From: an uncultured Clostridia bacterium | GTDB lineage: Bacteria; Bacillota; Clostridia; Christensenellales; UBA1242 | Assembly: GCA_944383375.1 (NCBI GenBank) | Contig: CALWPG010000002.1 | Span: forward strand, 19,007 to 83,006 | Length of the DNA: 64,000 nt | Reading direction: 5' to 3' | Shown: one piece after another, positions 7,462 to 44,749 of the stretch | How the letters are laid out: each line of letters begins with the position of its first letter | Numbering within the stretch: position 1 is the first letter of the stretch | Position numbers and translations under genes: made by a program | The notes under the pieces: model-generated | What the model saw: only the letters and a program-made list of their open reading frames with translations | The model's database searches: none | Told to the model about the DNA's origin: nothing

Positions 7462-7491
7462 AAAAATACAAATTTGATAAATGGAGAGAAA

Positions 7492-20348: not shown

Positions 20349-20847
20349 CCCTGCACAAAAGACAACTAAGTATTGCACTGACAATGCCGCCGACAAGTGC
20401 GATGGCTATTGCAGGTGCGATATTTTTTTGTTTTGAGCCTGCAAAATATACTGATGATACATAAAACACCGTCTCACTGCTTCCGAGTATACAACAAGCA
20501 CACCTTGAAATATAACTATCTGCACCATATCTTGAAATTATATCTTCCAATAGAGAAATGCTTCCGCTGCCGGTGAATGGTCTAAGTAGCACTAGTTCGC
20601 AGACTTCACTTGGGATGCCAAATAAGTTGAAAAGAGGTGTCAAAATGTCCACTAAAACGTTTCCTAGTCCACTTACTCTAAACAAAGCCACACATACCAT
20701 GATTGCAACAATGTATGGGAATATTGATTTTACAAGATCAAATGCACCTTTGGCTCCTTGACAAAAAGCAGAATAAACATTAACCTTTTTATATACTGCG
20801 TAAATTATCAATATTATTAAAATAATTGGAATTATATAAACGCTCAT
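20341..20847 (-). CDS. spmB: Spore maturation protein B (nucleoside-recognition/Gate domain membrane protein)
   Basis: Polytopic membrane protein with the LLRPFTGSGS motif. Its start overlaps the stop of the upstream spmA-like gene by 4 nt. Confidence 0.72.
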   Translation of the reverse strand: MSVYIIPIILIILIIYAVYKKVNVYSAFCQGAKGAFDLVKSIFPYIVAIMVCVALFRVSGLGNVLVDILTPLFNLFGIPSEVCELVLLRPFTGSGSISLLEDIISRYGADSYISRCACCILGSSETVFYVSSVYFAGSKQKNIAPAIAIALVGGIVSAILSCLLCRVI

Positions 20848-21404
20848 AGTTTTTTAATCTTTTTATAAATAAATAACAAGCCGACAGCGATAGTTGTGGC
20901 AATTAAACTAGAAATTAAAGTTGGCAAAATTATATCTGCGGCAGCAGTGCTTTGTGCACTAGCTCTAAGCCCAATAACGGTTGTGGGCAAAAATTGAATT
21001 CCAGTGGAATTTATAACTAGCAACATAAGCATTGCAAACTTTGTGTGTTTTAAGTCTTTTTCCATGCTTTTGATGGCTTTAATGCCGCTTGGTGTCGCTG
21101 CATTTCCAAGCCCTAAAAGGTTACAACTTAGATTGTAAGAAACATATTTTATTTGCTCTGCGTCATTGATTTTGAACAATCTCTTTATGACAGGGGAGAG
21201 AAATTTTGCCAGTTTATCTCCAAGTCCAGATTTGTCCACAATTTCCAAAATTCCAAGCCAAACTGCATAAATTGCCAAAAGATTTATACAAAGACTAACC
21301 ACATCTTTTGATTGGTTAATCATAGTGTTAATTATCAGATTAGGTTCAACGAATATTAGCACAACTAAGCTAATAAACATCATGCCTGTCCAAATTTTGC
21401 TCAT
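20844..21404 (-). CDS. spmA: Spore maturation protein A (nucleoside-recognition domain membrane protein)
   Basis: I prefer the ATG at 21404 (MSKIWTGMMFISL...). The track's longer start at 21494 would overlap the tatD start. GLGNAATPSGIKAIKSM motif of the SpmA family. Confidence 0.72.
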   Translation of the reverse strand: MSKIWTGMMFISLVVLIFVEPNLIINTMINQSKDVVSLCINLLAIYAVWLGILEIVDKSGLGDKLAKFLSPVIKRLFKINDAEQIKYVSYNLSCNLLGLGNAATPSGIKAIKSMEKDLKHTKFAMLMLLVINSTGIQFLPTTVIGLRASAQSTAAADIILPTLISSLIATTIAVGLLFIYKKIKKL

Positions 21405-21480
21405 ATTAATGTGTATGTACAAGCCCAGTAAAATATTTGTGTTTATGCAAAAAATGTAATATACTATACACGGAGAAAAT

Positions 21481-22248
21481 ATGTTTATCGACACCCATGC
21501 ACATCTTCAAGATCAGCTCTATCCAAATCTTAAAGACGTGCTAGAAAATGCAAAACAAAACAATGTACAAAAAATCATATGTGCAAGTTATGATTTAAAT
21601 TCTTCTATTCTTTCATGTAATTTAAGCGAGGAGCATGAAGAAATTTTTGCCACGGTTGGCGTGCATCCTGAAAATTGTGTAGAGTATAATGAACATGTTG
21701 AGCAACAACTTGAAACTCTTTGCAAAATGCAAAAAAAAGCAATTGCAATTGGTGAAATTGGACTCGATTACCACTACACAAAAGAAAATAAAGAAACGCA
21801 AAAAAGAGTTTTTATTGCACAAATTAAACTTGCACACAAATTAAAACTTCCAATAGTAATTCACACCAGAGATGCGATAGGTGATACACTTGAGATTGTA
21901 GAAAATTATTCGGAATATATCAAAAATGGTTGTGTATTTCATTGTTTCCATGGCTCAAAAGAAGTGTTAAAAATTATCATGGACAAAGGATTTTATGTGT
22001 CGTATGGTGGAGCAATTACATTTAACAATGCAAACACGCTTAGAGAAATTGTGAGTTTAACGCCTCTTGACAGAATTTTAACAGAAACAGATTGTCCCTA
22101 CATGTCGCCAGTACCATTTAGAGGTAAAACCAACCAGCCAAAAAATATTCCAATAATAGCACAAAAAATAAGTGAAATTAAAAATATTGAAATAAATAAT
22201 CTTGAAAAAATATTAGAGGAAAATACAAAAAATATATACAAAATATAA
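21481..22248 (+). CDS. tatD: TatD-family metal-dependent DNase/hydrolase
   Basis: MFIDTHAHL N-terminal motif, EIGLDYHY, and the ETDCPYM C-terminal motif. GGAG SD upstream. Confidence 0.88.
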   Translation: MFIDTHAHLQDQLYPNLKDVLENAKQNNVQKIICASYDLNSSILSCNLSEEHEEIFATVGVHPENCVEYNEHVEQQLETLCKMQKKAIAIGEIGLDYHYTKENKETQKRVFIAQIKLAHKLKLPIVIHTRDAIGDTLEIVENYSEYIKNGCVFHCFHGSKEVLKIIMDKGFYVSYGGAITFNNANTLREIVSLTPLDRILTETDCPYMSPVPFRGKTNQPKNIPIIAQKISEIKNIEINNLEKILEENTKNIYKI

Positions 22249-23142: not shown

Positions 23143-24027
23143 ATGTTGAAAAAAACATTGGTACTTGGTGCCGTGGATGGTGGCAACGAAAAAGCAGTAC
23201 TTAGTATAGAAAAAGATAATGGAGATTATTTTGGTCAGATTAAATTATACAATTTTCACGATGAACCAAATGGAATTTTGTCACTTGGACTTAAAGAGGA
23301 TGACAGGGTCATAAAGATAGGCTTGACCAGAATTGGAAATTTTAGATACACCTTTTCAACTCCAACACCATTAAAGCTTGGTGAATTTTCTTGTGCAGTT
23401 GTAAACATTTACAAGGGTGAAGCGAAAGCACTTTTACATGGTTGCACTCAAAATTCAAAACTCTCTGATGAATTTTTGTCACAAGCTGTTATCCAAATGC
23501 AGGATGCAACTTCGATGAAAGATTGTGAAGATATATTGGATCAAAATAATATCCACTTAGAAGATCAAAATAAAATTGAGAAAATGATAGACGATAATTT
23601 ATCTTCTTGTGGAGACAAATGCACTTCATGTAAGTATAGATATGCTTTTTTTAGCGATGATGAAACATCAAAAGAGCAAAAAGAAAGCTTTTATGATAGC
23701 ATAAGTGAAGATATATCTAACCTGTTTTCAACTCACAATGAGGAGGAGTTTCTTTCCCAGATTATTCCTTTTTCCAAATGGGTGAGGATAGACAACGAAG
23801 ATGGTGATGATTACTACGTCTTGGGATTGATTTACGAAAATGATCAAGTCAAATACATATGTTATGGTGTTCCTGGGCTCTATACGGACGAACCACCAAA
23901 AGAGCTTAAGGGTTATGCTGAATGGCTGCCATTGGATAGTACAAAGGAAAATGACTATGGCTACTGGATAACTTATCAAGATGCCGAAAGTGGCGAAAAT
24001 GTTAAAGCAAGTTTTACGGTAGTTTGA
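23143..24027 (+). CDS. Hypothetical protein (294 aa), no family recognised
   Basis: AGGAG SD 8 nt upstream of the ATG, and a clean ORF. Acidic middle region with CGDKCTSC. C-terminal YYVLGLIYENDQVKYICYGVPG ... YGYWITY segment. It sits where Bacillus has yabG/veg after ksgA. Confidence 0.6.
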   Translation: MLKKTLVLGAVDGGNEKAVLSIEKDNGDYFGQIKLYNFHDEPNGILSLGLKEDDRVIKIGLTRIGNFRYTFSTPTPLKLGEFSCAVVNIYKGEAKALLHGCTQNSKLSDEFLSQAVIQMQDATSMKDCEDILDQNNIHLEDQNKIEKMIDDNLSSCGDKCTSCKYRYAFFSDDETSKEQKESFYDSISEDISNLFSTHNEEEFLSQIIPFSKWVRIDNEDGDDYYVLGLIYENDQVKYICYGVPGLYTDEPPKELKGYAEWLPLDSTKENDYGYWITYQDAESGENVKASFTVV

Positions 24028-24097: not shown

Positions 24098-24673
24098 ATG
24101 CTTATAATTATTTCAGGTTCAGCTGGGGTGGGTAAAAATACCATAATCACACATCTTTTGGAAAATCATCCAAACATTAAACTCATACAAACTTGCACAA
24201 CTCGAGTCCCTCGACATACTGATAAGGATATGCATAATCCTTATATCTACATTACAAGAGAAGACTTTGAACAGAAGATAAAGGATGGTGAACTTTTTGA
24301 ACATGAGGAAATTCACAATAATTTTTACGGTGTTTTAAAATCTTCCATTGAGGAGATAAAAAAAAGACAATTCCACTTCATTAAAGATATCGGGGTCTTG
24401 GGGCAAATCAATTTGAAACGGGCACTTAAAAACAAGGTTGAAGTTTTATCGATATTTCTAACGGCACCAAAAGAGGAATTGATTAAAAGGTTAAAAGCGA
24501 GAGGAGATCATGATATTGATCTTAGAATATCCAGAATGGAATTTGAGCTTAGTTATGTAAAAAATTACGACTATTGCATAGAAAATATGAATTTGGAAAA
24601 AACCATAAAAAAAATAGAAAGTATAATAAAAAAGCATGAAAAGATAGAACAAAAAAAATTTAGCAATAAATAA
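24098..24673 (+). CDS. gmk: Guanylate kinase-like nucleoside monophosphate kinase
   Basis: P-loop GSAGVGKNT followed by TTRVPR ... YIYITREDFE ... EIHNNFYG, the guanylate kinase fold pattern. The P-loop differs from the canonical GPSGxGK, so substrate assignment is tentative. Confidence 0.65.
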   Translation: MLIIISGSAGVGKNTIITHLLENHPNIKLIQTCTTRVPRHTDKDMHNPYIYITREDFEQKIKDGELFEHEEIHNNFYGVLKSSIEEIKKRQFHFIKDIGVLGQINLKRALKNKVEVLSIFLTAPKEELIKRLKARGDHDIDLRISRMEFELSYVKNYDYCIENMNLEKTIKKIESIIKKHEKIEQKKFSNK

Positions 24674-24703
24674 AAAGAGTCACTAAAAAGTGGCTCTTTT
24701 TGT
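24673..24703. terminator. Bidirectional hairpin terminator between convergent genes
   Basis: AAAAAGAGTCAC-TAAAAA-GTGGCTCTTTTT: an 8-bp stem (one G.T) at 24676-24698, flanked by an A-run and a T-run. Confidence 0.6.
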
Positions 24704-27147
24704 TATTTGATTTTCGTCAATTCTTGGCTGTTTTGAGAAGAAATTTGAGGTTCTTGCTGTTTTTTTGCTTCCTTTTTCTGTTTTAATGATTTAAGCTTTG
24801 GAAGGCTATCAACAAGTTCTTTAGTTGATATAGACATTTTTGGACTATTTATATTATTCTCTGTTGCTAGATCGGTGAATGTCTTTCTACTAATGTCCTT
24901 GTCTGTAGATAACCATTTTTGATCAGGATTTTCTTTCAGCTGTTTTGCCGTCACATCCAAGAATTCTTTATTGTCTTTGTATGTGGTGTTTTCCATCTCT
25001 TTGACTTGTTGTTTATAACTTTCAAGATTTTTTATATCTTTTTGTATTGTTTGAGTTACATTTTCATTGATGAATTCGCCAGTTTTTTCAAGGAAATCTT
25101 GACGTGATTTAATTTCAAAATCAATATTTTGTAATTCCTCTTGTCTCGACAACTCAAAATTGATGTTTTGTTGTTCGGTAAATTTTGTCATTTCTTCCAA
25201 CTTTTTTGAAGCTGGTCTGTTGCCAAGATCATGGTTATTTTTAACATCTTGTTTGTATTCAGCATGAGAAAGCTTGTTTTTAACTCTTGTGTCATAATAG
25301 TCAAACTTATCTTGTTCATGCTGTGACAAATAAGGCTTTATCTCTTGTTTTTTGTTCAGTTTATTGTATCTTTCAAGCTCTTTCTTCGTCATGTTGTCAC
25401 CATTGAGTTTTTTCTTTCGCAACGCATCAAACTCGTTTAGTTCTTTCTCATTCAATGGCTTTGTTCCATTCTTTTTGTTTTCAAGTTTTTCTAATTGTTT
25501 TTCTTTCTTGGTTCTTTGCTCTTTCGTTAAATTAGGATTTTTTAATTGCCTAATTAGACTATTCAATTTTTCTTGTTCTCTTCTAGTTAGCCTACTTTGA
25601 CTTTTTTGCATCAGTTTCTCGTATTTTCTTTGTTGGCTAGGGGTCAATTGCTTGATATTTTGTTTTGCCTTAACATAATCTTTAATGTCTTTTCCGATAC
25701 TAAATATTGAACTAAATCTAAACTTTGATGTCTGTGCGACCCATGACGTTGTCATACCAAATAAGCACATAAGTGACACGAGAATGAATGCTGGATTTGC
25801 CAACATAAAGCCTGCCATAAAGAAGTTAGCACCCAAGATCAGCAATATTATTCTAAGACCTTTATGCATTGCTTGTGAAGCTGCCTTGTTCTTTTCTGCT
25901 TCAAGTTTTTCGTCACTTTTTTTATTGTTTTCAGCTCCAACCTGATTATTGTTATTATTATTTTGAGCAGGTGGAGCTTCAGGAGTTTTAGGTGGTTGCT
26001 CATGTTTTTGTGCTTTATCATCATCTTGTTCGCTTTGTTTATTAGGCGAGACATTTTCGTCTATTCTAAAATCATGAGCTGGATCTGTTGGATTGCCATT
26101 TGAATTGTCATCTGGATTATCTGTAGTATTTTCCACATCTTGAGTTTGTGGTGGGTCGTTTGTTTCTTGTTGAGCTTGCGTGTTGTCATCTTGTTCATTC
26201 TCATCAACTGACAATTCTGGCTTGTTAACATCAGCAATTTCATTATTTGACTGATTATCATCAGCTATATTAAAGGATGGCTGTGCATTTGTATTGGCTG
26301 CTTGAGATTGTTCCTCTGAAATTTTATTCCTTGCAATTCTATATGTGTTTTTGGGAGATTTAATGGAAGTAAAAGTTGCCTCTTTTGGAAATTCTTTTAT
26401 TTTTTCTTCATCATATTCAAGTCCCAAAAATTCACTTAAGTTTTTGGCATCATTTTTTGATAGGCGAGTACCAGCACTTATTCTATTTTCTGCAGGTTTT
26501 GTCAATTCACTCCTAGGTAAAAAAGTAACTAAATTTCCATCTTCATTTTTTCTCATTTCAACTTTTTTTGCTGAAATTATTTTTGTACCATCTTGATACA
26601 AAATTTCACCATCTGGAGATTTTAAAATATTTACACCATTTTCAAACGTCAATTGGTCATAACCATAACTATCTCTCAGAGTTTTTAACATTTGTGAAGG
26701 GAAATCCGTCATAATGATATCTTTGTTTTTAATTTGCTTAGGTAAATTATATGGAAGAGAAACATCAAGTGGTTTATCAAATTTTGCAATGGATTCAAAG
26801 TTTTTGCCAATCTTCATGCTGATTTCATTGTGTGTAATTTTGAATGTTCTTTTGCCTTGTTCTGTATCAGCTGTGATGGTAAAGTCCGTATTGTACTTTA
26901 TTTGTATGTTTGAAACATCTTTTAAAATTATCACATTGTCTTTGGATATGGCATCAAACTGATGTGAAGAATTGTCGATAGTGAACTCATGATTTTTAGT
27001 CTCAAGCATCATCAGGGCATTTTTAGAGTCCTTAAGATAAAGACAAAGTGCGTCGTCACCCTCTGCCACACGGAAGTTTTGCTTTTCAGTGTGATCGCCA
27101 TATTTTATATCAATGCTAAATCCATTTTTTATATCAGGCATTTTCAT
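24703..27147 (-). CDS. Large (812-814 aa) membrane-hairpin protein: globular N-domain, acidic/Q/N-rich linker, two TM helices, K/E-rich coiled-coil tail
   Basis: The upstream sequence is GGGAGG-ATGAAAATG. The SD abuts the first ATG (27147), so the second ATG (27141) is the likelier start. TM hairpin LRIILLILGANFFMAGFMLA-NP-AFILVSLMCLFGMTTSWVA at nt ~25740-25866. Low-complexity D/E/N/Q/P stretch at nt ~25872-26295. The K/E-rich C-terminal third carries degenerate L-T-x-x-E-Q-x-K-x-x-x-L units. No signal peptide. Confidence 0.75.
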   Translation of the reverse strand: MKMPDIKNGFSIDIKYGDHTEKQNFRVAEGDDALCLYLKDSKNALMMLETKNHEFTIDNSSHQFDAISKDNVIILKDVSNIQIKYNTDFTITADTEQGKRTFKITHNEISMKIGKNFESIAKFDKPLDVSLPYNLPKQIKNKDIIMTDFPSQMLKTLRDSYGYDQLTFENGVNILKSPDGEILYQDGTKIISAKKVEMRKNEDGNLVTFLPRSELTKPAENRISAGTRLSKNDAKNLSEFLGLEYDEEKIKEFPKEATFTSIKSPKNTYRIARNKISEEQSQAANTNAQPSFNIADDNQSNNEIADVNKPELSVDENEQDDNTQAQQETNDPPQTQDVENTTDNPDDNSNGNPTDPAHDFRIDENVSPNKQSEQDDDKAQKHEQPPKTPEAPPAQNNNNNNQVGAENNKKSDEKLEAEKNKAASQAMHKGLRIILLILGANFFMAGFMLANPAFILVSLMCLFGMTTSWVAQTSKFRFSSIFSIGKDIKDYVKAKQNIKQLTPSQQRKYEKLMQKSQSRLTRREQEKLNSLIRQLKNPNLTKEQRTKKEKQLEKLENKKNGTKPLNEKELNEFDALRKKKLNGDNMTKKELERYNKLNKKQEIKPYLSQHEQDKFDYYDTRVKNKLSHAEYKQDVKNNHDLGNRPASKKLEEMTKFTEQQNINFELSRQEELQNIDFEIKSRQDFLEKTGEFINENVTQTIQKDIKNLESYKQQVKEMENTTYKDNKEFLDVTAKQLKENPDQKWLSTDKDISRKTFTDLATENNINSPKMSISTKELVDSLPKLKSLKQKKEAKKQQEPQISSQNSQELTKIK

Positions 27148-27168: not shown

Positions 27169-27197
27169 AGTATACTCTTTTATATTATGTTTGTCAA
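27169..27197 (-). promoter_or_regulatory. Consensus promoter for the 814-aa gene
   Basis: On the minus strand: TTGACA (27197-27192), a 17-nt spacer, then TATACT (27174-27169). Confidence 0.55.
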
Positions 27198-27250
27198 TAC
27201 TGTTGAGTAGCAAAAATCTTTTAGTTACGACGCAATATTATGCAGGGTGC

Positions 27251-27388
27251 TAAAAAAGAAAAAAATTAATAATAAAAAAATAAAAAAAATATTTTTTTAA
27301 TAATTTATTTTTTTAAAATTATTTTTTAAAATATTTTTTGTTTTTATTGATTTTAAAAATTATTTAAAATAGATTTTAAATTGTTTGA
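27251..27388. other. 138-nt C-free, almost pure A/T tract (A-runs then T-runs) upstream of the giant-gene promoter
   Basis: Direct reading shows no C between 27251 and 27388 and only six G. The 5' part is A-tract-rich (27251-27290) and the rest is T-tract-rich, with reiterated TTTTTTAAAAT(T)AT units. Confidence 0.85.
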
Positions 27389-27413
27389 CTTAAATAGATG
27401 TAAACTATATAAT
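27385..27413 (+). promoter_or_regulatory. Near-perfect promoter for the 3765-aa gene
   Basis: TTGACT (27385-27390), an exactly 17-nt spacer, then TATAAT (27408-27413). The AT tract immediately upstream is placed like an UP element. Confidence 0.7.
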
Positions 27414-27474
27414 TATTTTGTCTAATAATGTAAATAATAATTTTAAAAGTCGTTTGTGTGTGTGGAGAAAAATT

Positions 27475-30400
27475 ATGAAATTTACAACATTTTTAAAAGT
27501 TTTTGCGATATCACTTGCCGTGTTTGTTGGCGCAACCGGAATTGGCATTGGAATATTGGCAATAGCTGGTTTTTTCAATAAGCCAATTGTTCAACCAGAA
27601 AATATGGTTTTTGACCAAAGCGAATACAATGTTGATGGCGATTTCCAAATTACCATTTCCACACAAACAGAAGATGTTACACAAACCACTTTGACTCTTT
27701 CTTTGCCTTACAGCACAAACACCCAAGTTAGAGATGGAAGAATTAGTGATGGAGTAATCTCAATTCCACAAACGGCAACATTAAACCAACCATTCGATGT
27801 AATAGTCATCAGAAACACAAACGACCAAGAATGTGATGGATTATCCTGGATAGCTGGGGGACATTCCACCATAAGAGCTACTTCTGAAAATCTACAAATA
27901 AATTCTATAGAAGCCAATGTTAATGTCGATGTTCCAGTTTATAGAACTGAACTACAAACCAAAGTCAGTGTGCAAGATGAAGATAGTGATATATTTGCAG
28001 TTGGATCAACAATTGAAGCAAGTTTAAAATTTTATCCAGCGCGCAGCGCTTATAGGTATAGTCAAGATGGATCAAACGGTGGTGGAATTGTTTATAAAAA
28101 TACATATTTCATGCCGGCTTCTGCAAATGACGAAAATATAACCCAGATAAATAATTCAAATAGATTTACTGCTAATAATGTCTCAAGTGGCAGTACACTT
28201 GTGGGCTATGTATTTACAACTGCCAGAATTGAAGAGAGAATTTTGCTAAGATATGCGGACCTTGAAGAAAATGCTAGATATCAAGAGATTTTAAGAGAGC
28301 TTGAACAATTATCACAGGATAGTCCTTCTTCAACAAAACAGGCTCATAGAGCAAGTAAATCTGTGGATATTGTTGAAGTTGAAGTGGATAGTATGCAAGT
28401 TAATGGTTTTATGACCAATGCCAACATAGATACTGAATTTACTCTTTATGCAAACAAAACTATAACCAGCAATGCAACTCAGGCAAATTTGGGTATTAGG
28501 TTATTTTCAAGTCTAGACGACTCCATATCGCTTCAAAATGAGCTTAAAAATGTGGGAATAACATTTTTGTATAGGGTTTCAGGTGTGTACTATGATGCAG
28601 TAAACAATCCAAACAGTCTTTACAATGTCATCACCATTCCAGAGTATGGATACAGTCAAACCAGACAGATCACTGTAGATGGAGTTGATTATACATATTA
28701 TTTTCCAATAATTACTGAAAGTGTTGATGATTACTTTTGGCAATTTTCAGCAAACTCCTTCGTGGATGCCGACAATCTTTGCATTGAAATAAGGTATTCT
28801 GGCGATCAAGAAGTTGAGCCAATTCGTATCCACTTTTCTACAAATAGAATAAATGAGTCACAGATAACTTGGTCCACCTCTCAGTTGGATTTAACAATAA
28901 TAGATGGCCAAACTCCTGATTTTAGAAGTTTGGATGTTTCGGCATATGCTAATGTTCCAAGTACAAATCTTTATCAAAGCAGAAGATATTTTGTCATATC
29001 ACGACAAGACATCAACATAAGTGATTACATAGTTACAGCCGGTGAGGCCACTGAATATACTTTGGGCTCACAACCATACACACTTTATGAAATAGAAAAT
29101 GGTATCATCCAGCCAAAGACCACTCAATGCTATGGAATGACATTTGAGGTTGTCTTTGTCACAATACAAACTTATTACAATGGAAGTCCAAAATATGATG
29201 ATGGTAAATATATCATTCAAATGTTCAGTCAAACCTCTTTAGGTTCAATTTCCACTCTTGAGGTAAACATTGACAAAACATTGTATGGTCTGACATCAAA
29301 TCTTCAAACGGCACTACCAGAAGAGGAGTTGATTATAAATGGTAATGACATTGCATATGTCCAAAATCAAACTGCACCTTTTGAAATTGTTGTTGGATAC
29401 ACATATCCAAATAACGCAGCGACCGATGTTATGCAAAATGAACAACTCATATTTAGAAATGCCATTGCAAACGATGAAATCAGTATTGTTGCAAAAGTAG
29501 ATGGAGTCACAACAAATCTTATTTACAGCACATCACATACGGAACAGGATGGTGATGTGGCAGGTACCATTGAATATATATTTTCAATGAATATTGCAGA
29601 ACTTGCAAGTGGTTTTAGAAGAGTAAAACTTTATGTGGTTTACCAAAATGACGCACTTGATCAGCCGGTGGAAATACCTATTTCTACATATAATGATAAC
29701 ATTGCTCTTGACTGCATTGAAGTCTATGATGGCGCAGCAGAATTGTTTAAGTTTAACTTAAATAATCATGAAGAATACTTGACTGGTCCTGATAATAGAA
29801 TCAATATTTCAACCGAAATTACTTATAATGATAGCGGAAATGCAAACTATGCAACTGGCATAACAACACGCTATATGCTTGCAAACACTGACATAGCACA
29901 ATATCTGTTCCAGTCACAAGATGGAATTATAGACTATACGAGATTGAGTGTTTTGGTTCAAGATAAATATGGTAAATTACCAATTTCAAGTGAATACACT
30001 TTGGAAAGTTCCGACTCTTCAATCTTAGTAGTCAGCAATCAAACATTCACCTTTAACGGAGAAGGTGATGTTGAAGTTTATCTAAAAGATGCTAATGGTG
30101 ATGTAAAGGATACATTGTACTTTACTATACAAAGAAGTGGAAATGTTTCAAAGGTTGAACATCTTCGTGAAAATGTCGTTGGTGATGTTGCCACAAAGGT
30201 TTCTAATGTCGCTTATGATTATGCTACATCAACATCTTCTTACACTTTCCCACAAATCTCAGTACCATTGATTGGGTATAAAGGTTCAACCATTTATCTA
30301 AATTCAACCAATGCCAACATTGTTAACCTTATCAGTTACACTTATAACTATAATAATGTTGATATATTACTTACAAGATTAATCAGATTTTCTCTTGTAA

Positions 30401-33400
30401 ATTCAGAGGATGAAATCACTTATGGTGATTATGTCAACTTCCATTTAAACAACACAACTGCATATTTGGAATTTGCCAAAGACTTTGGGCAAGCACAAAG
30501 TATTCATATTTTGGCGACAGTTCCAGAACTTGGAATTTCACAAGTCATAGTACTTGACATTTCACCAAATATTGACATTACTTTTGAAGAAATACAAAAC
30601 CAACGAGGCGAGGATTACATAGGTGACCAAATATACATTGGTGCTTATGCCGATTCAGCATATCATGTAAGAATTACACTTAATTATATAATTGGTGGTT
30701 CCACCCAAGATTTTGAACTTGACGATTCAATTTTCTCACTTTATTTGTACAAAGATGGAACTGGACAATTAATGACGTTCAATCAAAATGCAGATAATGG
30801 ATATATTGCAAGCTTTGTTAATTCCAAAAATTCAGAGGATGTAAACACAAATGCAATTTCAAGAGGAGATGCAAATACCTCAAATTATGTTTATGATATT
30901 TACATCGTGTTCAAGTCATTGAGTGAAGGTGACGGATTTAATAGGCTTATTGTTTCGTTAGAGAAAAATCAAAATCATAATTATAGCATAGATAATTCTG
31001 CATCGTTATATTTAAATATAAATCCAAATATTCATTTAAATCAAACCTCAAATGATTTATATTTGAATGTTGCTTATGAAAATCTTGGAAATCATTATGC
31101 TTATGGCGAAGCGTTTCTCTTTAGTCCAACTGATGAGAATTCACCAATTGAAATTGATCGCGTGGTACAAAACAACGATAGTAATATTACAATTTCTGAT
31201 ATCGATTATTCTTTAGTTGAATTTGAAATCACTCGTGGAGAAAGTTCTTTTGAGATTAATAAAGTTGGCACAAATGAATTCTACTTACGTAGTATTTCAA
31301 ACATACACAACAGCTCAAAATTTTCTGCGAACGTTACATACAATGGTGTTGTAATAGGTAGTGTTGAATTTGACGTATATCCAAATATAGTTCGCAATGA
31401 TGAAACAAATTTATGGGTAAAATATAAAGGAGAATATTATCTAAAACTTGTCAATGGTGAGCAGTATTCATTTGCAGCAATTGTCAATGCGTTTAGAGTT
31501 AATAAGGTAAATCCAGATGACTCCTCAATTTCTGTTAGCTTTGAAATGGTAGGGTCACAGTATTTAACCATTGATGATAACAACAGTTTAATAACAATAC
31601 AAAACGTAATCAATAACATAGTTATTGCCGACCAGGGTACTTTGAGATTAAGTAACGGCGACAGCATAAGTTTTAACGTGATTTTATTGCCATTTGATGT
31701 TCCATTTGTTTTGTATCCTAATGTAGATGTTTCCTCCTATGACCTTTATGACTTGCTTGATGCTCAATACCTTATTGCCAACAACATGTACTTTACTCTT
31801 GAAGGTGCAGGAAATGATGAGGGTACCGATATCTTGTTCACTTTAGATCAAGAAAACGATGAAAATACATATGGAATTAAATACGTAAGCGGCATGATTT
31901 TATCTGTTAGAAATGTAAATACACAAGATAACAACATCTACGCATATTTCGATATGAATGGTGCTAAACCAATACTAAAAACTGAAGCCGTAGGTCAAGA
32001 TACATTCGTTATTGTTGAAGCAAGACTTAGTATGGCAAGCAACAGTTTGGTAATCCCATATCTTATAATGATTAAGGCTGAACTGAGCCTCAGAACATAT
32101 TACCCATATGTTGAAGGTCATTCTCAAAATGGAAATATCTCAGGAAATGATCTAATTACAAGTCTTGAAAATGTATCATTTGATATGGAATATCTTAATT
32201 TTGATCAAGACGGCAAAGCTCAACTTGACCTATTTGCAAGATTTGATAACATTTTACTACCAAATTATTCTAATTCAAGCAGATTTGTCATTGGAAAACT
32301 TAATAGTGAAGGTGTATTTGAACCAAATGATAACAGTGATTTAACTTTGTCATCCAGCATAGTGGTCACTATTTCCGAACTTTGGTATTATTACTATGGT
32401 TGGAAAAATGCTCAAAATGTACAAAACTATGCAACTATTACTTCAAATATCAATGGAAATGGCTTGCTTACGGTCAATAAGAATGGTGCAAGTTATTTGC
32501 GTATAAAATTGACATTGACTACTAGAAGTGGACTTATTGCGTATTATTATGTAAGTGTTGGCGAAATTCCAGCATTCACTTTGACTCAAAGACAAGCAGA
32601 CGATACTTTCTCGACGCAAATTACAAATATCTCTTTTAAAGCAGGAACTGAATTTGGCTTGGCTGGAAGATATCGTTTATCCTCTCCACTAGGCCAGTCA
32701 TCGGGTGTAACAGATGTGACTAATTTACTCAAATTTTATTCTCCTGCAGAACTTGACGACGTGCATGTTCTCTTTATAAATGACCAAACCCAAACATTAG
32801 AGGCACAATCTTCAACTGAAAATTGGTCAACAGATCTTGTACTTTACACAAAATATGGACCACTAGTTTCAATAACAGTAGACATTTTGTCAAATTACAA
32901 TATTGGACTCGTTGAAGGACAAAATGTAGTCACATATAATTCATCTGGATACTATGAAGTTCTTTCTGGAAATGTCATTGATGTATTGTCAACATTCAAA
33001 ATAAACAAAGATGATGAGCCAGCGTTTGAGCCTTTAAATATAGATGTGGAAATCACACTCGATGATGACATCGACTCAACAAAATTGTATTTAGGTGGAG
33101 AGAATAATCAATCCATATTCATTGGTCTATTTACTCAAACCACGATGACAACAATCAACATAAGGTTCAATTTCCAAGACGAAGGGAATGACGCAGTTTA
33201 TAATTTTACTTTAAATTTAAACATCATAAGCGCACTAACTGTTGCCCAATTAGCTGGACAGAGCATCAGCCAAAATAATAAGTTGCCTGTTGGTGGAATT
33301 GTTGCTGGACAAAATGGACAGGAAATTGATGTGTTGATTTCATCAATTGAAGATGGATTATTTAACTTCAATTCACACAATGGCATAACATTTGATTCGT

Positions 33401-36400
33401 GGTACAAAAATGTCCTAGGTAGGGGACTGGGAGAATTAAGAGTTGAACTTTTATCACAAAATGTCTATGGAAGTTTTTCTGGTGATATAATTAATAATGG
33501 CACTGATGATGCTCCAAACTATGTTATAGGTTTAAACATAAGCGAAGTGGCGACTTCCACGGATTTATCATTTAGAGTTTCATTCTATTCCAGTGGTGGA
33601 GATATGATACTTTCATCATACTTCATGTTAAGTGTGGAGCCAAACTTTAGGGTTGTAACAAATTATCCAAGCCCTAATGACATCACTGCTGTAGTGGCAG
33701 AATCGTACTATTGGGTAGCTGGGGAAAATAATACCATCAACCTCCAAGAGGCACATGAACTCGCCAACCAATTAAGAGTTCAGGTATTGAGCTTGGATGG
33801 CAGCGAATCCACGCAACACGCAACCAACATAAATGTGTATCCATCTACCGGCAGTGAGTTTATAACTGTGGGAGGACAGCCATTTACACAGGGTCAACCA
33901 CTTGATACCACTTTTGAAATTAATAATATTGAAGAAACATTCACAACCATTGTCTTTGAATTGAGATATGTAAATGGATCAGTGAGTATACCTATTGGAG
34001 TATATAATCTCATTATTCTTCAAAGCGATATTTACTCTATGTCGGGCTATAATTACAACACCACATCAAATCAAAATAGTTTAAACAACAGAGAAAATAT
34101 ATATATCGGTGATAATGATAACATACTAAACACCATTACTGCATCGTTTATTGTCCCAACAGACTTAAATCTTGAAGTTGATAAATATCTTGAAATAACT
34201 CAAATAAATGGGGTGCAAGTTCAAGCTAGCATGGTCACCTTGCAACAAGGAATGCAGGGCACCACGCAGAGTGTCCGAGTACTGCTTTTGGGAGATTTAT
34301 CGAACTTTGGTCGAGCTGAATTTAATGTCCAATTTAGCATCTACGAGTTAAACACGAGTGGAGAATACATCCCTTCCAATCTTTATGACGAAGATGGAAA
34401 TATTTTACCAAGTAGTGAAATATCATTTACATTCCAATCAAGAATCAGAGTGATGTATAGGGCAGTGACATCTTTAAGTGATACACAGCCACAATTTAGT
34501 GATGCCCAAGTTGAATTCTTTAAACAATATTCATTGATCGACATAAACGCAAGTAATTTAGTAGTAGGCCAAATTCAAAACGAGGGAGAAATTGATCAAC
34601 CTATCAGTTTACAGAACGGCCGTGAAATAGGAACGTATTACGTCAATTACGACTTTGATATACAATTTGATCAAACTACGATAGAATTAACGACTGGACA
34701 AAACACTAATGTTCTCTACACCACGTCACAAGCTGCAAACTTCAGATCTGTCATCAACATGAAAAGGGCATCAAACGGTAGCTATTACACACAAAGCGAT
34801 TTCTCTAATGGTGGCTTACAACTACGCATTGATAGTGCCGACGTTACGAATATCCCAACAGATTTTACATATGGTTCAGATGCATATAATGATTTCATGA
34901 GTGGATCGGCATCTAGATTATCATATTTAACATTCACACCTTTCATGAGTGAAGATGGTACTATTTACGATTATAATTTCATGGCTCAAGGTTCACCAAA
35001 GGAAACAAGGGTTACCGTAACCATTCCACTTACCATTGTATTTGGTGCAATAGAAAAGGAATACACATTAACCTTTATTGTTAAACACGACTATAATGAG
35101 AGTACATTGACGCTAAGAAATGCAGATAATTCTATAAATTCTCAGACCTCTAGAAATAGGATACAAAGCTTTGATTCATTTATCACATTTGCTACTTGGG
35201 GAAGCACTTCTCCATTTGACAATTTCATATTTATCGAGCACACAAATGAAAGTCAAAATGAACCTGGCAATATAGCTTCATTATTCAACGTAACGTATGA
35301 ACAAAATGGTAGTTATGTTGAGAAGTTGCCTCAGTCAAGTTCGAATTATAACCTATCATTTAAGTTTACCGATGTAATGTTTAATGACATAAATATCGAT
35401 ATAAAACTAACAGATGACTATGGTTACAGTGTGATGTACTATGTGACAATAGTAGCAAGGTACAATATTAACTATACATTATCAAATATCAATGTGTTTG
35501 AAGATGATAGTGTTGCGGTTTTTGGTGGAAACAATATTTCTAATTCGCCATACAATCAAACTATTCCAATAACTTTCCAAAAAAGAAATAGTGCTTACAA
35601 CGACATCACAATAGGTGACCTTGGCGAATGGTCAGCTCAATTTGTTGCCAACTACAATTATGACATAAATGAAGACGGCTACATTAATGATGCCGACAGC
35701 TATAATGTTGATTATTCCTTGATTTCACAAGGAAACTATAGGTACTTCATCACAGAATTCGCACAGGCCAAGTACTTTACTCAAACGGGCATGATAAGTG
35801 GAACTTTAAAGTTAAAATCCACGTATTCTGATTCAAATGGTACTCAATATGATATTTCATTTGAAATACCTATGAATGTTCGCGAAAGATACTCATTGCA
35901 AGCATCTAGTACACCTTATGTTCGTGATGGTGTTGCATTCAGTTTATTGGATGTTGTTGATGTTGTGGACAATAGCAAAAATTATACAGTTGCACAAAGG
36001 GAATTGACTGATTCTTACACGATTTATTTTGATTATTCCATACTCGATGAAAGTCTTTCTGAAATTCAAGCTGACCTATCCTCATTCGTTACACTCGGAA
36101 TTCGTGCTTACAACACACAAAACCAAGGTTACGTAGATATGTCATTGGCTAACGTAGAAAGACAGCAATATGTATCACTCACTGAGTTGTTTGGCATTGA
36201 TGACATACAAAACTATGAGTTTACATGGATATGCTACTACACTGAATATAATTTTGAAGGTGACGAAGTCATATCATCTGAAGCAAAAAGAGAAACTTTT
36301 ACTTATACAAATAATGGCAATTCCGTTCCATATGTAATTTCTCTTGAAAATTCTGACGGTTATCAGCTGTCATCGAATGCAATCACATTCAAAACTTCAG

Positions 36401-38772
36401 ATAACAAGACTTATCAAATAAAAATTGACTCTTCATACATAATTGAAGATCAAACATTTACAATAGGACTAAGAGAACTTGACAATGACCAACGCATATC
36501 TGTTTGGTTTGTAGACACAGAAGATAGCGCCAATACAAAAGTGCTCAATGTAGTTTCAAATACCAATTCACAAGTGACATATTCATTGAGAGAACAAGGT
36601 ATTACCTCAGTTAGCGAAAAAGTTTCGCTATATACAAGTCAAGATAAGACCATTGTAAACGGACTTTCAAATTCTGACATTGCTAAACTTAAAGGCATTA
36701 GTTTTGAGAGTGTAAGTGGTGGAGACACAATTGAGTCAAATTATCAACTTACAAAATACATTGAGCCAAACCCAGATGGTACTGTAACCTTCAAGACAAG
36801 TAACGATGGACTTAATGTTGAATATGTTGATGGTGAAATAAACATTAAAGTTAACTATGCGATTGTTGACGGCGAGCCAAAGAAGACCGAGGACAATTTC
36901 AGGGATGACATTTGGATTACACCAAAATTCATTTCTGTTGATTCAACACTAGCATATGGCTCAGGAGTTACTAAAAATGTGCTATTGCCAGACGGGGTGG
37001 GAATAGGTTCTCCAATTTCATTGTCCACTTGGGCGGGGACAACCTACAGACAATTTGAATTGATTTCTGGATACACTTCAGCTACATCATTTGTTGACAG
37101 TGATGACTCAACATTCAGTGCAAATGTCGATGATCTATACTTTGCTATAAACACCTTGCAGTCTCAAGAAGGTGCTAGTTACGCAAGCATAGATTCTCAA
37201 TCAGGAGCAATTACACTTAGTGATGAATTTAACTATCAATATCACTACTTAATAATTGACGTATTTGTTAAATATGGAGAAGATCAATCACGCACGAAAC
37301 AAATTGGAAGTGTGAGAATTCAATTTACGCCTTCTTCGTCCACCAGTTTTACAGTAAGTGCTCCGGTTAAACAGTTGCCATATACATCTAGTGACAACAG
37401 TGTGACAATAAAATCAATTGACATATTGCAAATGTTAAGAGTGAGTGACAACATTTCAAACACATATCAAGGTACGGATATTTTAGATGTATTTCCAAGT
37501 ATAACTGTACTATTTTACTCAAGTCGCACGGGAAATAGTGAGGATGGCTATATATACACCCCTATTAGCTCAGAAATTTCACCGGAAACTACTGAAGATG
37601 TGACATTCACTATGTCAACCATTCAACCCGTAAATCTAAGGGTGAGACTTACCAGTGATGGAGAAGATAAAGTCATTGAAGACATAGAATTAGTTAATGA
37701 TAAATACACGGCGAATAGTCTCGCAAGCAGCAGTGCATATTCATACTTAGACGTTTCAAATGCTGGCGAGAGTGCCATATTTGCTGCAATTTACGACAAA
37801 ATTCGTGTACGAAATATATATGGCAATCTTGACAATGCAGATACAGTATTTGACATTGAAGGGAATTACGATTACAACGATTTGAAAGATAGTGGAAAAA
37901 TCACACACTTAGCTGAGACTAAAAGTTCTCTTGTTACAACTCACACTTTCACATTGGGAGATAACTTAAATTCTGATGGTATTGTCTATGGAAAAATAAG
38001 TGTTGATGTCTACACAGAGCCCAATGAAATAACTGATAATCTTAAATTAGAAATGACTGTGGGGGATAGTCAATCTGATTTGTTTAGAAATGAACTCTTT
38101 TGTTATGAAAGTTTTCCAGTTCATGGTTACATGACAAAATCGACCCCTGGCACAGATGGAGCCGACCCTCTAACAGAGTATTATTTAAGACTGCCAATAG
38201 ATAGTGGCAATGAGATAGCAGTAGCCAACGCTATTAGTAATAATTACTTTGATATCTATCAAAATGGATCTTTGCTTGAAAATGCGCAGTCAAATGCATT
38301 TACTCTTGCTTTGGAAGCTGGAAATCATATATTGTTTACATTCAATGCAGCAACTGGCGAAACTGTACCAAATTTGAGTGGGTATGACAATGATATGTTT
38401 GTTTTGGTATTTAAAGATTCAAATGAAAGTACCGCAAATATTGTGTACAGCACTGCATTTGTGTTTAAAAATCAATCAGAAGAAACAGATAGTAGAATCT
38501 CCGAATTTGAAAACATTTTCCAATTACTTTCATACATGTATGGATTGGATCAAAGCAGCCTTTATGTCAGACTTACTGATGAAACAAACAGTGTAGTTTT
38601 GAGGACTGAGAATGGAAACTATAGTTTGTTCGCTATAAAACAAGGTGCTCTTATATCCGTGAAATTAGAGATATATATTTCTATAACCGATGTTAATTCT
38701 GGCGTTGAGGATATAGTTTTATACTCCAATGATATATCAATTACAATAAGCCAACCACAAATACAAGGATAA
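27475..38772 (+). CDS. Giant (3765 aa) N-terminally membrane-anchored extracellular protein, family not recognised
   Basis: I prefer the ATG at 27475 (GGAG at 27464-27467) over the TTG at 27418 in the track. N-terminus MKFTTFLKVFAISLAVFVGATGIGIGILAIAGFF is a signal-anchor. The rest is a continuous N/T/S/Y/D-rich, very Cys-poor ORF with beta-sandwich-like boundaries (for example VNVDVPVYRTEL). It has no reiterated GLUG blocks and no LPXTG or other recognisable C-terminal anchor. Confidence 0.85.
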   Translation: MKFTTFLKVFAISLAVFVGATGIGIGILAIAGFFNKPIVQPENMVFDQSEYNVDGDFQITISTQTEDVTQTTLTLSLPYSTNTQVRDGRISDGVISIPQTATLNQPFDVIVIRNTNDQECDGLSWIAGGHSTIRATSENLQINSIEANVNVDVPVYRTELQTKVSVQDEDSDIFAVGSTIEASLKFYPARSAYRYSQDGSNGGGIVYKNTYFMPASANDENITQINNSNRFTANNVSSGSTLVGYVFTTARIEERILLRYADLEENARYQEILRELEQLSQDSPSSTKQAHRASKSVDIVEVEVDSMQVNGFMTNANIDTEFTLYANKTITSNATQANLGIRLFSSLDDSISLQNELKNVGITFLYRVSGVYYDAVNNPNSLYNVITIPEYGYSQTRQITVDGVDYTYYFPIITESVDDYFWQFSANSFVDADNLCIEIRYSGDQEVEPIRIHFSTNRINESQITWSTSQLDLTIIDGQTPDFRSLDVSAYANVPSTNLYQSRRYFVISRQDINISDYIVTAGEATEYTLGSQPYTLYEIENGIIQPKTTQCYGMTFEVVFVTIQTYYNGSPKYDDGKYIIQMFSQTSLGSISTLEVNIDKTLYGLTSNLQTALPEEELIINGNDIAYVQNQTAPFEIVVGYTYPNNAATDVMQNEQLIFRNAIANDEISIVAKVDGVTTNLIYSTSHTEQDGDVAGTIEYIFSMNIAELASGFRRVKLYVVYQNDALDQPVEIPISTYNDNIALDCIEVYDGAAELFKFNLNNHEEYLTGPDNRINISTEITYNDSGNANYATGITTRYMLANTDIAQYLFQSQDGIIDYTRLSVLVQDKYGKLPISSEYTLESSDSSILVVSNQTFTFNGEGDVEVYLKDANGDVKDTLYFTIQRSGNVSKVEHLRENVVGDVATKVSNVAYDYATSTSSYTFPQISVPLIGYKGSTIYLNSTNANIVNLISYTYNYNNVDILLTRLIRFSLVNSEDEITYGDYVNFHLNNTTAYLEFAKDFGQAQSIHILATVPELGISQVIVLDISPNIDITFEEIQNQRGEDYIGDQIYIGAYADSAYHVRITLNYIIGGSTQDFELDDSIFSLYLYKDGTGQLMTFNQNADNGYIASFVNSKNSEDVNTNAISRGDANTSNYVYDIYIVFKSLSEGDGFNRLIVSLEKNQNHNYSIDNSASLYLNINPNIHLNQTSNDLYLNVAYENLGNHYAYGEAFLFSPTDENSPIEIDRVVQNNDSNITISDIDYSLVEFEITRGESSFEINKVGTNEFYLRSISNIHNSSKFSANVTYNGVVIGSVEFDVYPNIVRNDETNLWVKYKGEYYLKLVNGEQYSFAAIVNAFRVNKVNPDDSSISVSFEMVGSQYLTIDDNNSLITIQNVINNIVIADQGTLRLSNGDSISFNVILLPFDVPFVLYPNVDVSSYDLYDLLDAQYLIANNMYFTLEGAGNDEGTDILFTLDQENDENTYGIKYVSGMILSVRNVNTQDNNIYAYFDMNGAKPILKTEAVGQDTFVIVEARLSMASNSLVIPYLIMIKAELSLRTYYPYVEGHSQNGNISGNDLITSLENVSFDMEYLNFDQDGKAQLDLFARFDNILLPNYSNSSRFVIGKLNSEGVFEPNDNSDLTLSSSIVVTISELWYYYYGWKNAQNVQNYATITSNINGNGLLTVNKNGASYLRIKLTLTTRSGLIAYYYVSVGEIPAFTLTQRQADDTFSTQITNISFKAGTEFGLAGRYRLSSPLGQSSGVTDVTNLLKFYSPAELDDVHVLFINDQTQTLEAQSSTENWSTDLVLYTKYGPLVSITVDILSNYNIGLVEGQNVVTYNSSGYYEVLSGNVIDVLSTFKINKDDEPAFEPLNIDVEITLDDDIDSTKLYLGGENNQSIFIGLFTQTTMTTINIRFNFQDEGNDAVYNFTLNLNIISALTVAQLAGQSISQNNKLPVGGIVAGQNGQEIDVLISSIEDGLFNFNSHNGITFDSWYKNVLGRGLGELRVELLSQNVYGSFSGDIINNGTDDAPNYVIGLNISEVATSTDLSFRVSFYSSGGDMILSSYFMLSVEPNFRVVTNYPSPNDITAVVAESYYWVAGENNTINLQEAHELANQLRVQVLSLDGSESTQHATNINVYPSTGSEFITVGGQPFTQGQPLDTTFEINNIEETFTTIVFELRYVNGSVSIPIGVYNLIILQSDIYSMSGYNYNTTSNQNSLNNRENIYIGDNDNILNTITASFIVPTDLNLEVDKYLEITQINGVQVQASMVTLQQGMQGTTQSVRVLLLGDLSNFGRAEFNVQFSIYELNTSGEYIPSNLYDEDGNILPSSEISFTFQSRIRVMYRAVTSLSDTQPQFSDAQVEFFKQYSLIDINASNLVVGQIQNEGEIDQPISLQNGREIGTYYVNYDFDIQFDQTTIELTTGQNTNVLYTTSQAANFRSVINMKRASNGSYYTQSDFSNGGLQLRIDSADVTNIPTDFTYGSDAYNDFMSGSASRLSYLTFTPFMSEDGTIYDYNFMAQGSPKETRVTVTIPLTIVFGAIEKEYTLTFIVKHDYNESTLTLRNADNSINSQTSRNRIQSFDSFITFATWGSTSPFDNFIFIEHTNESQNEPGNIASLFNVTYEQNGSYVEKLPQSSSNYNLSFKFTDVMFNDINIDIKLTDDYGYSVMYYVTIVARYNINYTLSNINVFEDDSVAVFGGNNISNSPYNQTIPITFQKRNSAYNDITIGDLGEWSAQFVANYNYDINEDGYINDADSYNVDYSLISQGNYRYFITEFAQAKYFTQTGMISGTLKLKSTYSDSNGTQYDISFEIPMNVRERYSLQASSTPYVRDGVAFSLLDVVDVVDNSKNYTVAQRELTDSYTIYFDYSILDESLSEIQADLSSFVTLGIRAYNTQNQGYVDMSLANVERQQYVSLTELFGIDDIQNYEFTWICYYTEYNFEGDEVISSEAKRETFTYTNNGNSVPYVISLENSDGYQLSSNAITFKTSDNKTYQIKIDSSYIIEDQTFTIGLRELDNDQRISVWFVDTEDSANTKVLNVVSNTNSQVTYSLREQGITSVSEKVSLYTSQDKTIVNGLSNSDIAKLKGISFESVSGGDTIESNYQLTKYIEPNPDGTVTFKTSNDGLNVEYVDGEINIKVNYAIVDGEPKKTEDNFRDDIWITPKFISVDSTLAYGSGVTKNVLLPDGVGIGSPISLSTWAGTTYRQFELISGYTSATSFVDSDDSTFSANVDDLYFAINTLQSQEGASYASIDSQSGAITLSDEFNYQYHYLIIDVFVKYGEDQSRTKQIGSVRIQFTPSSSTSFTVSAPVKQLPYTSSDNSVTIKSIDILQMLRVSDNISNTYQGTDILDVFPSITVLFYSSRTGNSEDGYIYTPISSEISPETTEDVTFTMSTIQPVNLRVRLTSDGEDKVIEDIELVNDKYTANSLASSSAYSYLDVSNAGESAIFAAIYDKIRVRNIYGNLDNADTVFDIEGNYDYNDLKDSGKITHLAETKSSLVTTHTFTLGDNLNSDGIVYGKISVDVYTEPNEITDNLKLEMTVGDSQSDLFRNELFCYESFPVHGYMTKSTPGTDGADPLTEYYLRLPIDSGNEIAVANAISNNYFDIYQNGSLLENAQSNAFTLALEAGNHILFTFNAATGETVPNLSGYDNDMFVLVFKDSNESTANIVYSTAFVFKNQSEETDSRISEFENIFQLLSYMYGLDQSSLYVRLTDETNSVVLRTENGNYSLFAIKQGALISVKLEIYISITDVNSGVEDIVLYSNDISITISQPQIQG

Positions 38773-42040: not shown

Positions 42041-42056
42041 ATAGCTTTATATGCAT

Positions 42057-42446: not shown

Positions 42447-42450
42447 TTCT

Positions 42451-43155: not shown

Positions 43156-43183
43156 AGATTAATTATTGCATTATATTAATTTT

Positions 43184-44719: not shown

Positions 44720-44749
44720 ATCATATCTTATTGTATGGAGGCAAAATTT

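Follow-up and report, generated by a model that had tools for sequence, protein, structure and literature searches.

Giant surface proteins of bacteria are usually studied as stand-alone adhesins. It is well established that, in the LapD/LapG-LapA system of Pseudomonas, the retention of a giant adhesin is governed by LapD, which has two close transmembrane (TM) helices and large cytoplasmic domains, and that, in Mycoplasma, the cytoplasmic-side proteins HMW1, HMW3, and P65, built of acidic, proline-rich, low-complexity sequence and helices, are needed to place or stabilize very large adhesins. Equally familiar are the chlamydial Inc proteins, in which a bilobed hydrophobic hairpin of ~40–60 amino acids (aa) keeps both termini on the same side and helical or coiled arms act as binding platforms; the oleosins, reticulons, and caveolin-type proteins, whose long uncharged hydrophobic stretch has a central proline-containing turn and both ends on the cytoplasmic face; and Firmicute scaffolds and partners of the EzrA, MapZ, RodZ, and GpsB type, in which a cytoplasmic interaction or helical region is joined to the membrane by a TM segment and disordered linkers. 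Here, we describe a pair of divergent genes from an uncultured Clostridia bacterium, located in a stretch of 64,000 nucleotides (nt) of contig CALWPG010000002.1 (the whole of which is called the window below). One gene, at 24703..27147 on the minus strand, encodes a protein with a central hydrophobic hairpin, hereafter the hairpin protein. The other, at 27475..38772 on the plus strand, encodes an S/N/T-rich giant of 3765 aa that belongs to no known family. We favor, as a real but still tentative possibility, a reading in which the hairpin protein would be a cytoplasmic-side adaptor or scaffold of the giant, meeting it inside the membrane.

How does the hairpin protein compare with these systems? 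It shares with LapD the two close TM helices and the large, predicted cytoplasmic parts. However, LapD carries a periplasmic output domain between the two helices and, on the inner side, HAMP-GGDEF-EAL domains, whereas the hairpin protein has a two-residue turn and no such domains, and the adhesin type and secretion route of the LapA system differ from those of the giant. The HMW-type proteins are matched by its acidic, proline-containing linker and its helical half, but they are peripheral and cytoskeletal rather than hairpin-anchored and come from another lineage; the hairpin protein has no EAGR-box by Pfam and no homology to them, and its own tie to a giant is one of genetic linkage only. 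The resemblance to Inc proteins is architectural only, and the sequences show no detected similarity. Type III secretion delivers Inc proteins into a host-derived vacuole, and they have no large β-rich N-terminal domain (N-domain), whereas the hairpin protein would sit in the producer's own membrane, in a lineage of the Gram-positive type and in an organism of the free-living type. Oleosins, reticulons, and caveolin-type proteins are eukaryotic, reside on lipid droplets, the endoplasmic reticulum, or caveolae, and show no sequence relationship to the hairpin protein, whose arms, at ~20 aa each, are long enough to span the bilayer, in contrast to proline-knot or re-entrant hairpins. The EzrA-, MapZ-, RodZ-, and GpsB-type proteins, on the other hand, are single-pass anchors from recognizable Pfam or NCBIfam families and show no pairing with a giant surface gene. 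Full-text literature searches returned no description of the gene pair, and a survey of giant genes covers other Clostridia giants, of the RCC1 and Listeria-Bacteroides repeat types, but not this one (bioRxiv 10.1101/2023.11.21.568195). We regard the family and the gene pair as undescribed, and the novelty claimed here is that of the family and the module.

The two genes are found together in nearly every locus where their neighborhood can be read. Pairing was counted from the loci carrying a hairpin-protein gene, and a locus was taken as informative when the upstream DNA was present. In 15 of the 16 informative loci (the window, L001, L002, L003, L004, L005, L007/8, L009/10, L011, L012, L017, L018, L019, L023/24, and L025), the divergent upstream neighbor is a homologue of the giant gene; among them are loci whose hairpin proteins have N-domains only ~20–28% identical to that of the window. 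The neighboring giants are homologous to the giant of the window, with 40–60% identity in close relatives and E-values of 1e-35 and 5e-25 in distant ones. The opposite flank, meanwhile, shows nine arrangements (gmk/ksgA/tatD, the L001 set, ABC transporter/HD, TyrRS, LRR_5/M50, the L017 set, LysR, GatCAB, and Fe-ADH), and we therefore conclude that the pair has been kept together through repeated rearrangement. An earlier reading of the window, made from its letters alone (the sequence-only reading), had pointed out the divergent layout and proposed co-occurrence with the giant gene as a test; the layout was confirmed, and independence of the two genes was not seen. Nine further loci were uninformative because the contig ends within ~1 kb upstream or inside the gene (L006, L013–L016, L020, and L021 among them). 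The contig ends at the uninformative loci lie mostly ~40–310 bp upstream of the start codon. It may be that assemblies tend to break in the giant gene or in the A/T-rich stretch before it, in which case protein catalogues probably contain too few giant genes of this type.

What kind of protein is the giant? It starts with an N-terminal stub of ~5 residues, followed by one long hydrophobic helix (aa ~6–34, FLKVFAISLAVFVGATGIGIGILAIAGFF), and the remainder is non-repetitive S/N/I/T-rich sequence without a Pfam, NCBIfam, or PDB sequence match; PHROGs and PADLOC likewise gave nothing usable. This layout suggests a type II-anchored surface protein whose bulk, a very large extracytoplasmic part, lies beyond the membrane, leaving nothing in the cytoplasm. 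Since such a protein would have essentially no cytoplasmic portion, any coupling to the cytoplasm would need a membrane partner.

The hairpin protein carries a single hydrophobic stretch, at aa 430–472 in a Kyte-Doolittle scan of the whole protein. The hairpin itself (aa 429–472; 25732..25863, on the minus strand like all features of this protein given below) consists of a first arm at ~430–450, the turn N451-P452, and a second arm at 453–472, and a charge-free block of 42 aa (433–474) has N451-P452 at its center. In the full-length AlphaFold2 (AF2) model, built on a 14-sequence family alignment, a helix runs up to residue 449, breaks, and resumes from 452 to 470. Hydropathy and AF2 thus agree on the central hairpin of two close helices split by N-P that the sequence-only reading had described. 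The 15-aa flank on each side of the hairpin holds 4 K/R versus 1 D/E. Furthermore, all 34 long family members have a charge-free block, 34–56 aa in length and with P or G at its middle, between flanks that are net positive; the mean net charge is +2.1 upstream and +1.5 downstream. Residues 1–429 contain no hydrophobic window, and the polar N-terminus (MKMPDIKNGFSIDIKYGDH) shows no n-h-c signal sequence, in keeping with the earlier statement that the protein lacks a signal peptide.

By its two arms, minimal uncharged turn, and positive flanks, the protein falls into the hairpin (in/in) class, which is a topological class and not a homologous family. By the charge and hydropathy rules used to assign topology, an N-in/C-in arrangement with both halves in the cytoplasm is most likely, because there is no signal peptide, the turn is uncharged and only two residues long, and the flanks are positive in all 34 long members. 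In insertion by Sec/YidC, the export of a 430-residue N-terminal part that includes an acidic segment would be unusual without a signal sequence, which also favors the in/in arrangement. The earlier placement of both large parts on the same side of the membrane is consistent with these features, and neither a cleaved signal nor an extracellular location, which had been named as grounds for rejecting it, was found. A hairpin would also leave the two halves on the same side if the topology were inverted, so that both were extracellular and the protein acted as a surface co-factor of the giant ectodomain; hydropathy alone is silent on which side that is. We regard this as very improbable, as it would require ~430 residues, the strongly acidic segment of 135 aa among them, to be exported with no signal peptide, and against the positive flanks and uncharged turn common to the long members. 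The charge-free block is just 34–37 aa in four members, which we infer to be short for two spans plus an exposed loop; the length of these blocks also means that the hairpin may be re-entrant rather than fully spanning.

The adaptor reading is proposed because the giant appears to have no cytoplasmic domain, its neighbor has two large parts that are probably cytoplasmic, and the hairpin between them has no external loop. In this arrangement, the β-rich N-domain (aa 6–272) would hang on a ~135-aa acidic, flexible tether on the cytoplasmic side, the 42-aa helix-Asn-Pro-helix hairpin would enter the membrane from the cytoplasmic side and return there, and the charged helical C-half (aa 484–796) would follow the membrane segment, again on the cytoplasmic side. 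The hairpin would meet the anchor helix of the giant within the bilayer, and the N-domain and the array of short helices could offer binding platforms through which the giant is positioned, retained, or coupled to cytoplasmic components.

A meeting inside the membrane is proposed because the membrane segment is the most conserved part of each protein. As mean pairwise identity within the close family, the hairpin stands at 66%, followed by the post-membrane segment (57%), the N-domain (53%), the repeat helices (44%), the C-terminal helices (34%), the tail (28%), and the linker (22%). Similarly, the anchor helix of the giant shows 77% pairwise identity compared with 41–58% elsewhere in close relatives, and 58% compared with 30–50% elsewhere over all relatives. 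Could the same pattern reflect a more transient role? A dedicated biogenesis or quality-control factor that helps target, insert, or export the 3765-aa protein, for example by holding its signal-anchor or nascent chain at the translocon, would equally account for the conserved gene pairing, for an unusually long (~30 aa) and highly conserved signal-anchor in place of a normal signal peptide, for an equally conserved partner hairpin, and for the strong sigma-70-type promoters of both genes. We consider this unlikely, though deserving of serious attention: the hairpin protein has no similarity to a known secretion accessory protein, chaperone, ATPase, or insertase, and, with a long disordered tether that varies and a helix array of variable copy number, it resembles a structural spacer or platform more than it does a chaperone.

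The four-part build suggested by the sequence-only reading was borne out by composition, hydropathy, and AF2. The N-domain (aa 6–272; 26332..27132) is mostly β with four short helices and is predicted to be cytoplasmic; when re-predicted alone, it was modeled with ~20 strands and four short helices at a predicted local distance difference test score (pLDDT) of 88 and a predicted template modeling score (pTM) of 0.82. The first 285 residues are balanced in charge. The disordered, acidic D/E/N/Q/P linker (aa 273–408; 25924..26331), which had also been predicted at ~140 aa, holds the N6 run; by composition, aa 286–425, which include this run, are D/E/N/Q/P-rich with a net charge of −21, and the pLDDT is below 35 over aa 274–419. 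Both the length and the sequence of the linker differ between homologues, one of which has insertions of several hundred residues. A basic juxtamembrane helix (aa 409–428; 25864..25923) then runs into the first hydrophobic arm, AF2 giving a single unbroken helix at aa 409–449. On the other side of the hairpin lies a conserved, basic post-membrane segment (aa 473–500; 25648..25731) with the pattern FSSxFSIGKDIKDYxKAK, which includes an AF2 helix at aa 484–496 with a hydrophobic moment of 0.47.

The C-half (aa 476–814) has 60 K and 35 E in 339 residues, and the lysine/glutamate-rich character and degenerate repeats ascribed to it were both recovered. The five quoted units, of the form L-T/S-x-x-E/Q...K...L, were located at aa 501, 520, 540, 586, and 607, together with a sixth, degenerate one (L-N) at 566; five matches were reached in none of 2000 composition-preserving shuffles of the C-half (mean 0.12). 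They correspond to an array of six charged helices of ~20 aa (aa 501–626; 25270..25647), each opening with L/M-T/S/N-x-x-E/Q. Each of the six units lies 2 residues ahead of the start of a 13–18-aa AF2 helix, and the array is therefore best described as a string of short charged helices and not one rod. In its pattern (L, then S/T/N, x, x, E/Q), the unit motif resembles a hydrophobic staple with an N-capping box, and the alignment shows that the copy number varies, units having been gained and lost across homologues. The array is followed by a C-terminal helical region (aa 627–740; 24928..25269) with helices at 645–689, 695–716, and 721–739 and pLDDT values of 76–90, and then by a low-confidence tail (aa 741–814; 24706..24927) with a basic helix at 775–796. 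In total, the full-length model has fifteen helices, thirteen of them in the C-half. The earlier label of a coiled coil found no support, as most of these helices are of 13–18 aa and, in a crude home-made test, the heptad a and d positions of the longest one (45 aa, 645–689) were hydrophobic in at best 5 of 13 cases. After the poorly conserved tail, most close homologues (P0002–P0005, P0011, and P0012) end in a conserved motif, K-x-D-D-G-x-T-F-T-P-T-I-I, which, as a sequence, looks like a docking peptide. The window copy ends in ...QELTKIK, without this motif.

Does the hairpin protein belong to any known family? A word-indexed search found 14 proteins at 30–43% overall identity, all of them unnamed and lacking a Pfam domain. 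An exhaustive search of 1.84 billion representatives with a hidden Markov model of the N-domain raised this to 31 proteins at E ≤ 0.001, of which 28 were at E ≤ 1e-10; these 31 members are clusters at 50% identity. The six genomes found to encode a relative are all metagenome-assembled genomes of uncultured Clostridia. All full-length members share the same build of an N-domain, a disordered linker, a charge-free block, basic flanks, and a helical C-half. Two distant members, P0038 and P0040 (loci L019 and L025), have an additional A/K/E/T-rich extension of ~150–380 aa, probably helical, ahead of the N-domain, and both still adjoin a divergent giant gene.

Searches of reference collections returned nothing usable. 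For the 814-aa protein, no Pfam family was found at E ≤ 0.01, and PHROGs and PADLOC gave no matches. The sole NCBIfam match, SepX/GlpR (NF045516), reached 16.8 bits against a cut-off of 160 bits (E 0.0048); it covers aa 272–455, that is, the linker and the first hydrophobic arm, and was rejected. The sole PDB sequence match, to EssB/YukC (9qks_C, E 1e-5), was obtained with the full-family profile over positions 304–442, which correspond approximately to the linker plus the first part of the membrane segment, and was set aside as compositional, the N-domain profile alone matching no PDB sequence. Furthermore, EssB/YukC has an N-terminal cytoplasmic pseudokinase, a single TM helix, and a folded extracellular C-domain, whereas the hairpin protein has a hairpin and not a single pass. 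Foldseek searches of the N-domain and full-length models against PDB and BFVD gave no match at E ≤ 0.001; the best matches, to the tandem PH-like fold of the FACT middle domains (Spt16/Pob3/SSRP1) and Rtt106, had a template modeling score of ~0.2 and a root-mean-square deviation of ~13 Å and were likewise rejected. When 20 diverse N-domains were scanned at E ≤ 5, no family was matched by more than one member. The N-terminal SPOCS domain of SpoVID (PF20918, threshold 27.1 bits) was matched by P0024 only, at residues 96–157 with 17 bits (E 0.0053), the other 19 of the 20 N-domains scoring nothing, and we keep it only as an unverified lead; a weak Pfam match to GldM from a single member was dismissed as inconsistent. 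The statement of the sequence-only reading that no family could be recognized therefore holds across Pfam, NCBIfam, PHROGs, PADLOC, PDB, and Foldseek.

Might the N-domain nevertheless be an enzyme, a result that had been named as one that would count against the earlier reading? It matched no enzyme or other known family. Over the 20 N-domains, only I104, L131, P132, P150, G187, and F240 are invariant, and no polar residue is. An enzymatic role is disfavored, and we rejected that reading, because no polar N-domain residue is conserved across the family; the pattern of invariant residues argues for binding rather than catalysis.

Several points weigh against the proposed adaptor. The case for a physical partnership or a scaffolding role is built on gene order and conservation, and genes can sit side by side without their products being partners. 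The members are all from a single lineage that has been poorly sampled, and part of the synteny may be inherited, not selected. The in/in topology was derived from rules on charge and hydropathy. At locus L018, the giant keeps a group-A-type anchor while the hairpin sequence of its partner, P0023, is quite different; a strict co-variation of the hairpin with the giant anchor was looked for and not found. The conservation of the hydrophobic segments could come from constraints of the insertion machinery or of lipids instead. Finally, L022 is the only informative locus with another upstream neighbor, an endolysin-like open reading frame (ORF) (193–895, plus strand) with M15-type peptidase motifs and PG_binding_1 that is seemingly split by a frameshift. 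The contig ends ~1 kb upstream of the hairpin-protein gene there, and the arrangement could be a prophage remnant inserted between the pair or a pair that has been broken.

The expression signals of the two genes are also conserved. The hairpin-protein ORF on the minus strand, which was found to be real, has its stop codon at 24703–24705 and counts 814 aa from its first ATG (24703..27147), but the true start is likely the in-frame ATG at 27141, giving 812 aa. This start is preferred because the Shine-Dalgarno sequence GGGAGG runs directly into the first ATG and leaves a spacing of 7 nt to the second, and because, in the family alignment, the homologues all start with M-P/S-D-x-K-x-G-F, equivalent to the second ATG. 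A terminator-like, bidirectional hairpin at 24669–24704 closes the gene. The sequence-only reading had also proposed a control region shared with the giant gene. The divergent layout over a gap of 327 bp agrees with this in part, but the gap holds two separate, back-to-back promoters of the sigma-70 type, both near-consensus and both conserved in relatives. That of the hairpin-protein gene (27197..27169, minus strand) reads TTGACA, 17 nt, TATACT, with 11 of 12 consensus positions, and TTGACAAA plus the −10 box occurs in the matching stretch of all 13 intergenic regions read. That of the giant gene (27385..27413, plus strand) reads TTGACT, 17 nt, TATAAT and is followed by a conserved leader of ~60 nt (27414–27474, plus strand). 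This leader and its promoter are almost identical across group-A relatives, despite proteins that are only 40–60% identical. The spacer between the two promoters (27240–27380) is ~140 nt of nearly pure A/T, and neither it nor the leader at 27414–27474 matched an Rfam family at threshold or showed a convincing stem by eye. Nothing in the expression signals of the pair points to sporulation-specific control.

The strong conservation of the intergenic region and the giant leader could suggest a membrane-tethered regulator of the divergent giant gene, which would sense the status of the envelope or the giant and feed back on transcription, and divergent pairs are a classic regulator-target layout. 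Yet the Pfam and NCBIfam scans detected no DNA-binding, kinase, anti-sigma, or other signaling domain, the hairpin has no external loop with which to sense the outside, and an N-domain tethered at the membrane is poorly placed for any obvious part in DNA binding. We give this explanation very little credence.

The gene that follows the giant bears on another alternative. A cardiolipin-synthase-like gene (38802–40268, plus strand), with two PLD domains and PLDc_N, starts 29 nt past the stop codon of the giant gene and, because no terminator-like site lies between them, may be co-transcribed with it. It is suggestive that an enzyme making anionic lipids should be encoded close to a protein whose juxtamembrane segments are basic. 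Hairpin proteins with helical arms and basic juxtamembrane segments commonly organize membranes, flotillins and reticulon-type hairpins being examples, and the family is confined to one lineage. The hairpin protein might accordingly be an independent membrane scaffold, concerned with division, morphogenesis, curvature, or lipid domains, whose place next to the giant reflects inherited gene order or shared regulation. We find this rather unlikely, since the pairing survives nine flank rearrangements and a divergence of the N-domain to ~20% identity, which is hard to explain without selection, and since no known division or morphogenesis family was matched, SepX/GlpR falling far below its cut-off (16.8 versus 160 bits).

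Further genes around the pair complete the picture of the locus. Two more giant ORFs lie in tandem upstream (31–7461, 2476 aa, and 7474–16830, 3118 aa, both on the plus strand). Neither of these T/N/S/G-rich ORFs matched Pfam or NCBIfam, and BLAST found them similar neither to one another nor to the 3765-aa giant. The 3118-aa ORF has a lipoprotein-type N-terminus (...LLLGAC), and its counterpart, a 3174-aa gene beside holB, is conserved in a close relative. Counting the two tandem ORFs and the 3765-aa gene, at least three giant envelope proteins, all unannotated, are encoded within 40 kb in this lineage. Between ksgA and a gmk-like gene, an ORF of 294 aa (23143–24027, plus strand) occupies the same position in close relatives; the gene after ksgA in Bacillus is yabG, but this ORF matched no Pfam or NCBIfam family, including YabG (Peptidase_U57). 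Sporulation- and germination-type genes are found nearby on the minus strand (20341–21494 and 41567–44809), encoding SpmA/SpmB-like Gate proteins, Amidase_6, DUF4363, a YetF-like protein, and a SpoVB/MurJ-like flippase; the organism probably forms spores and has a normal peptidoglycan wall.

Both proteins of the pair fall outside every described family, and both are encoded by gut bacteria that no one has yet grown in culture. A bolder and, in our judgment, quite improbable extension of the adaptor reading is that the pair forms a new transmembrane coupling device, in which the anchor of a giant fiber or "leg" would be clamped in the bilayer by the hairpin and linked to a cytoplasmic platform. 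If true, the β-domain, the entropic-spring linker, and the variable helix array would transmit force or positional information across the membrane, as a functional analogue of integrin-talin or of the Mycoplasma gliding-leg machinery, and uncultured gut Clostridia equipped with several giant surface proteins could use the device to adhere or to move over surfaces. On the more modest reading of a dedicated cytoplasmic-side partner, the giant would be placed, held, or coupled from the inside via intramembrane contacts. Were this so, the small partner gene, its conserved hairpin, and the conserved anchor helix of the giant would together offer a handle for studying how very large surface proteins are organized.

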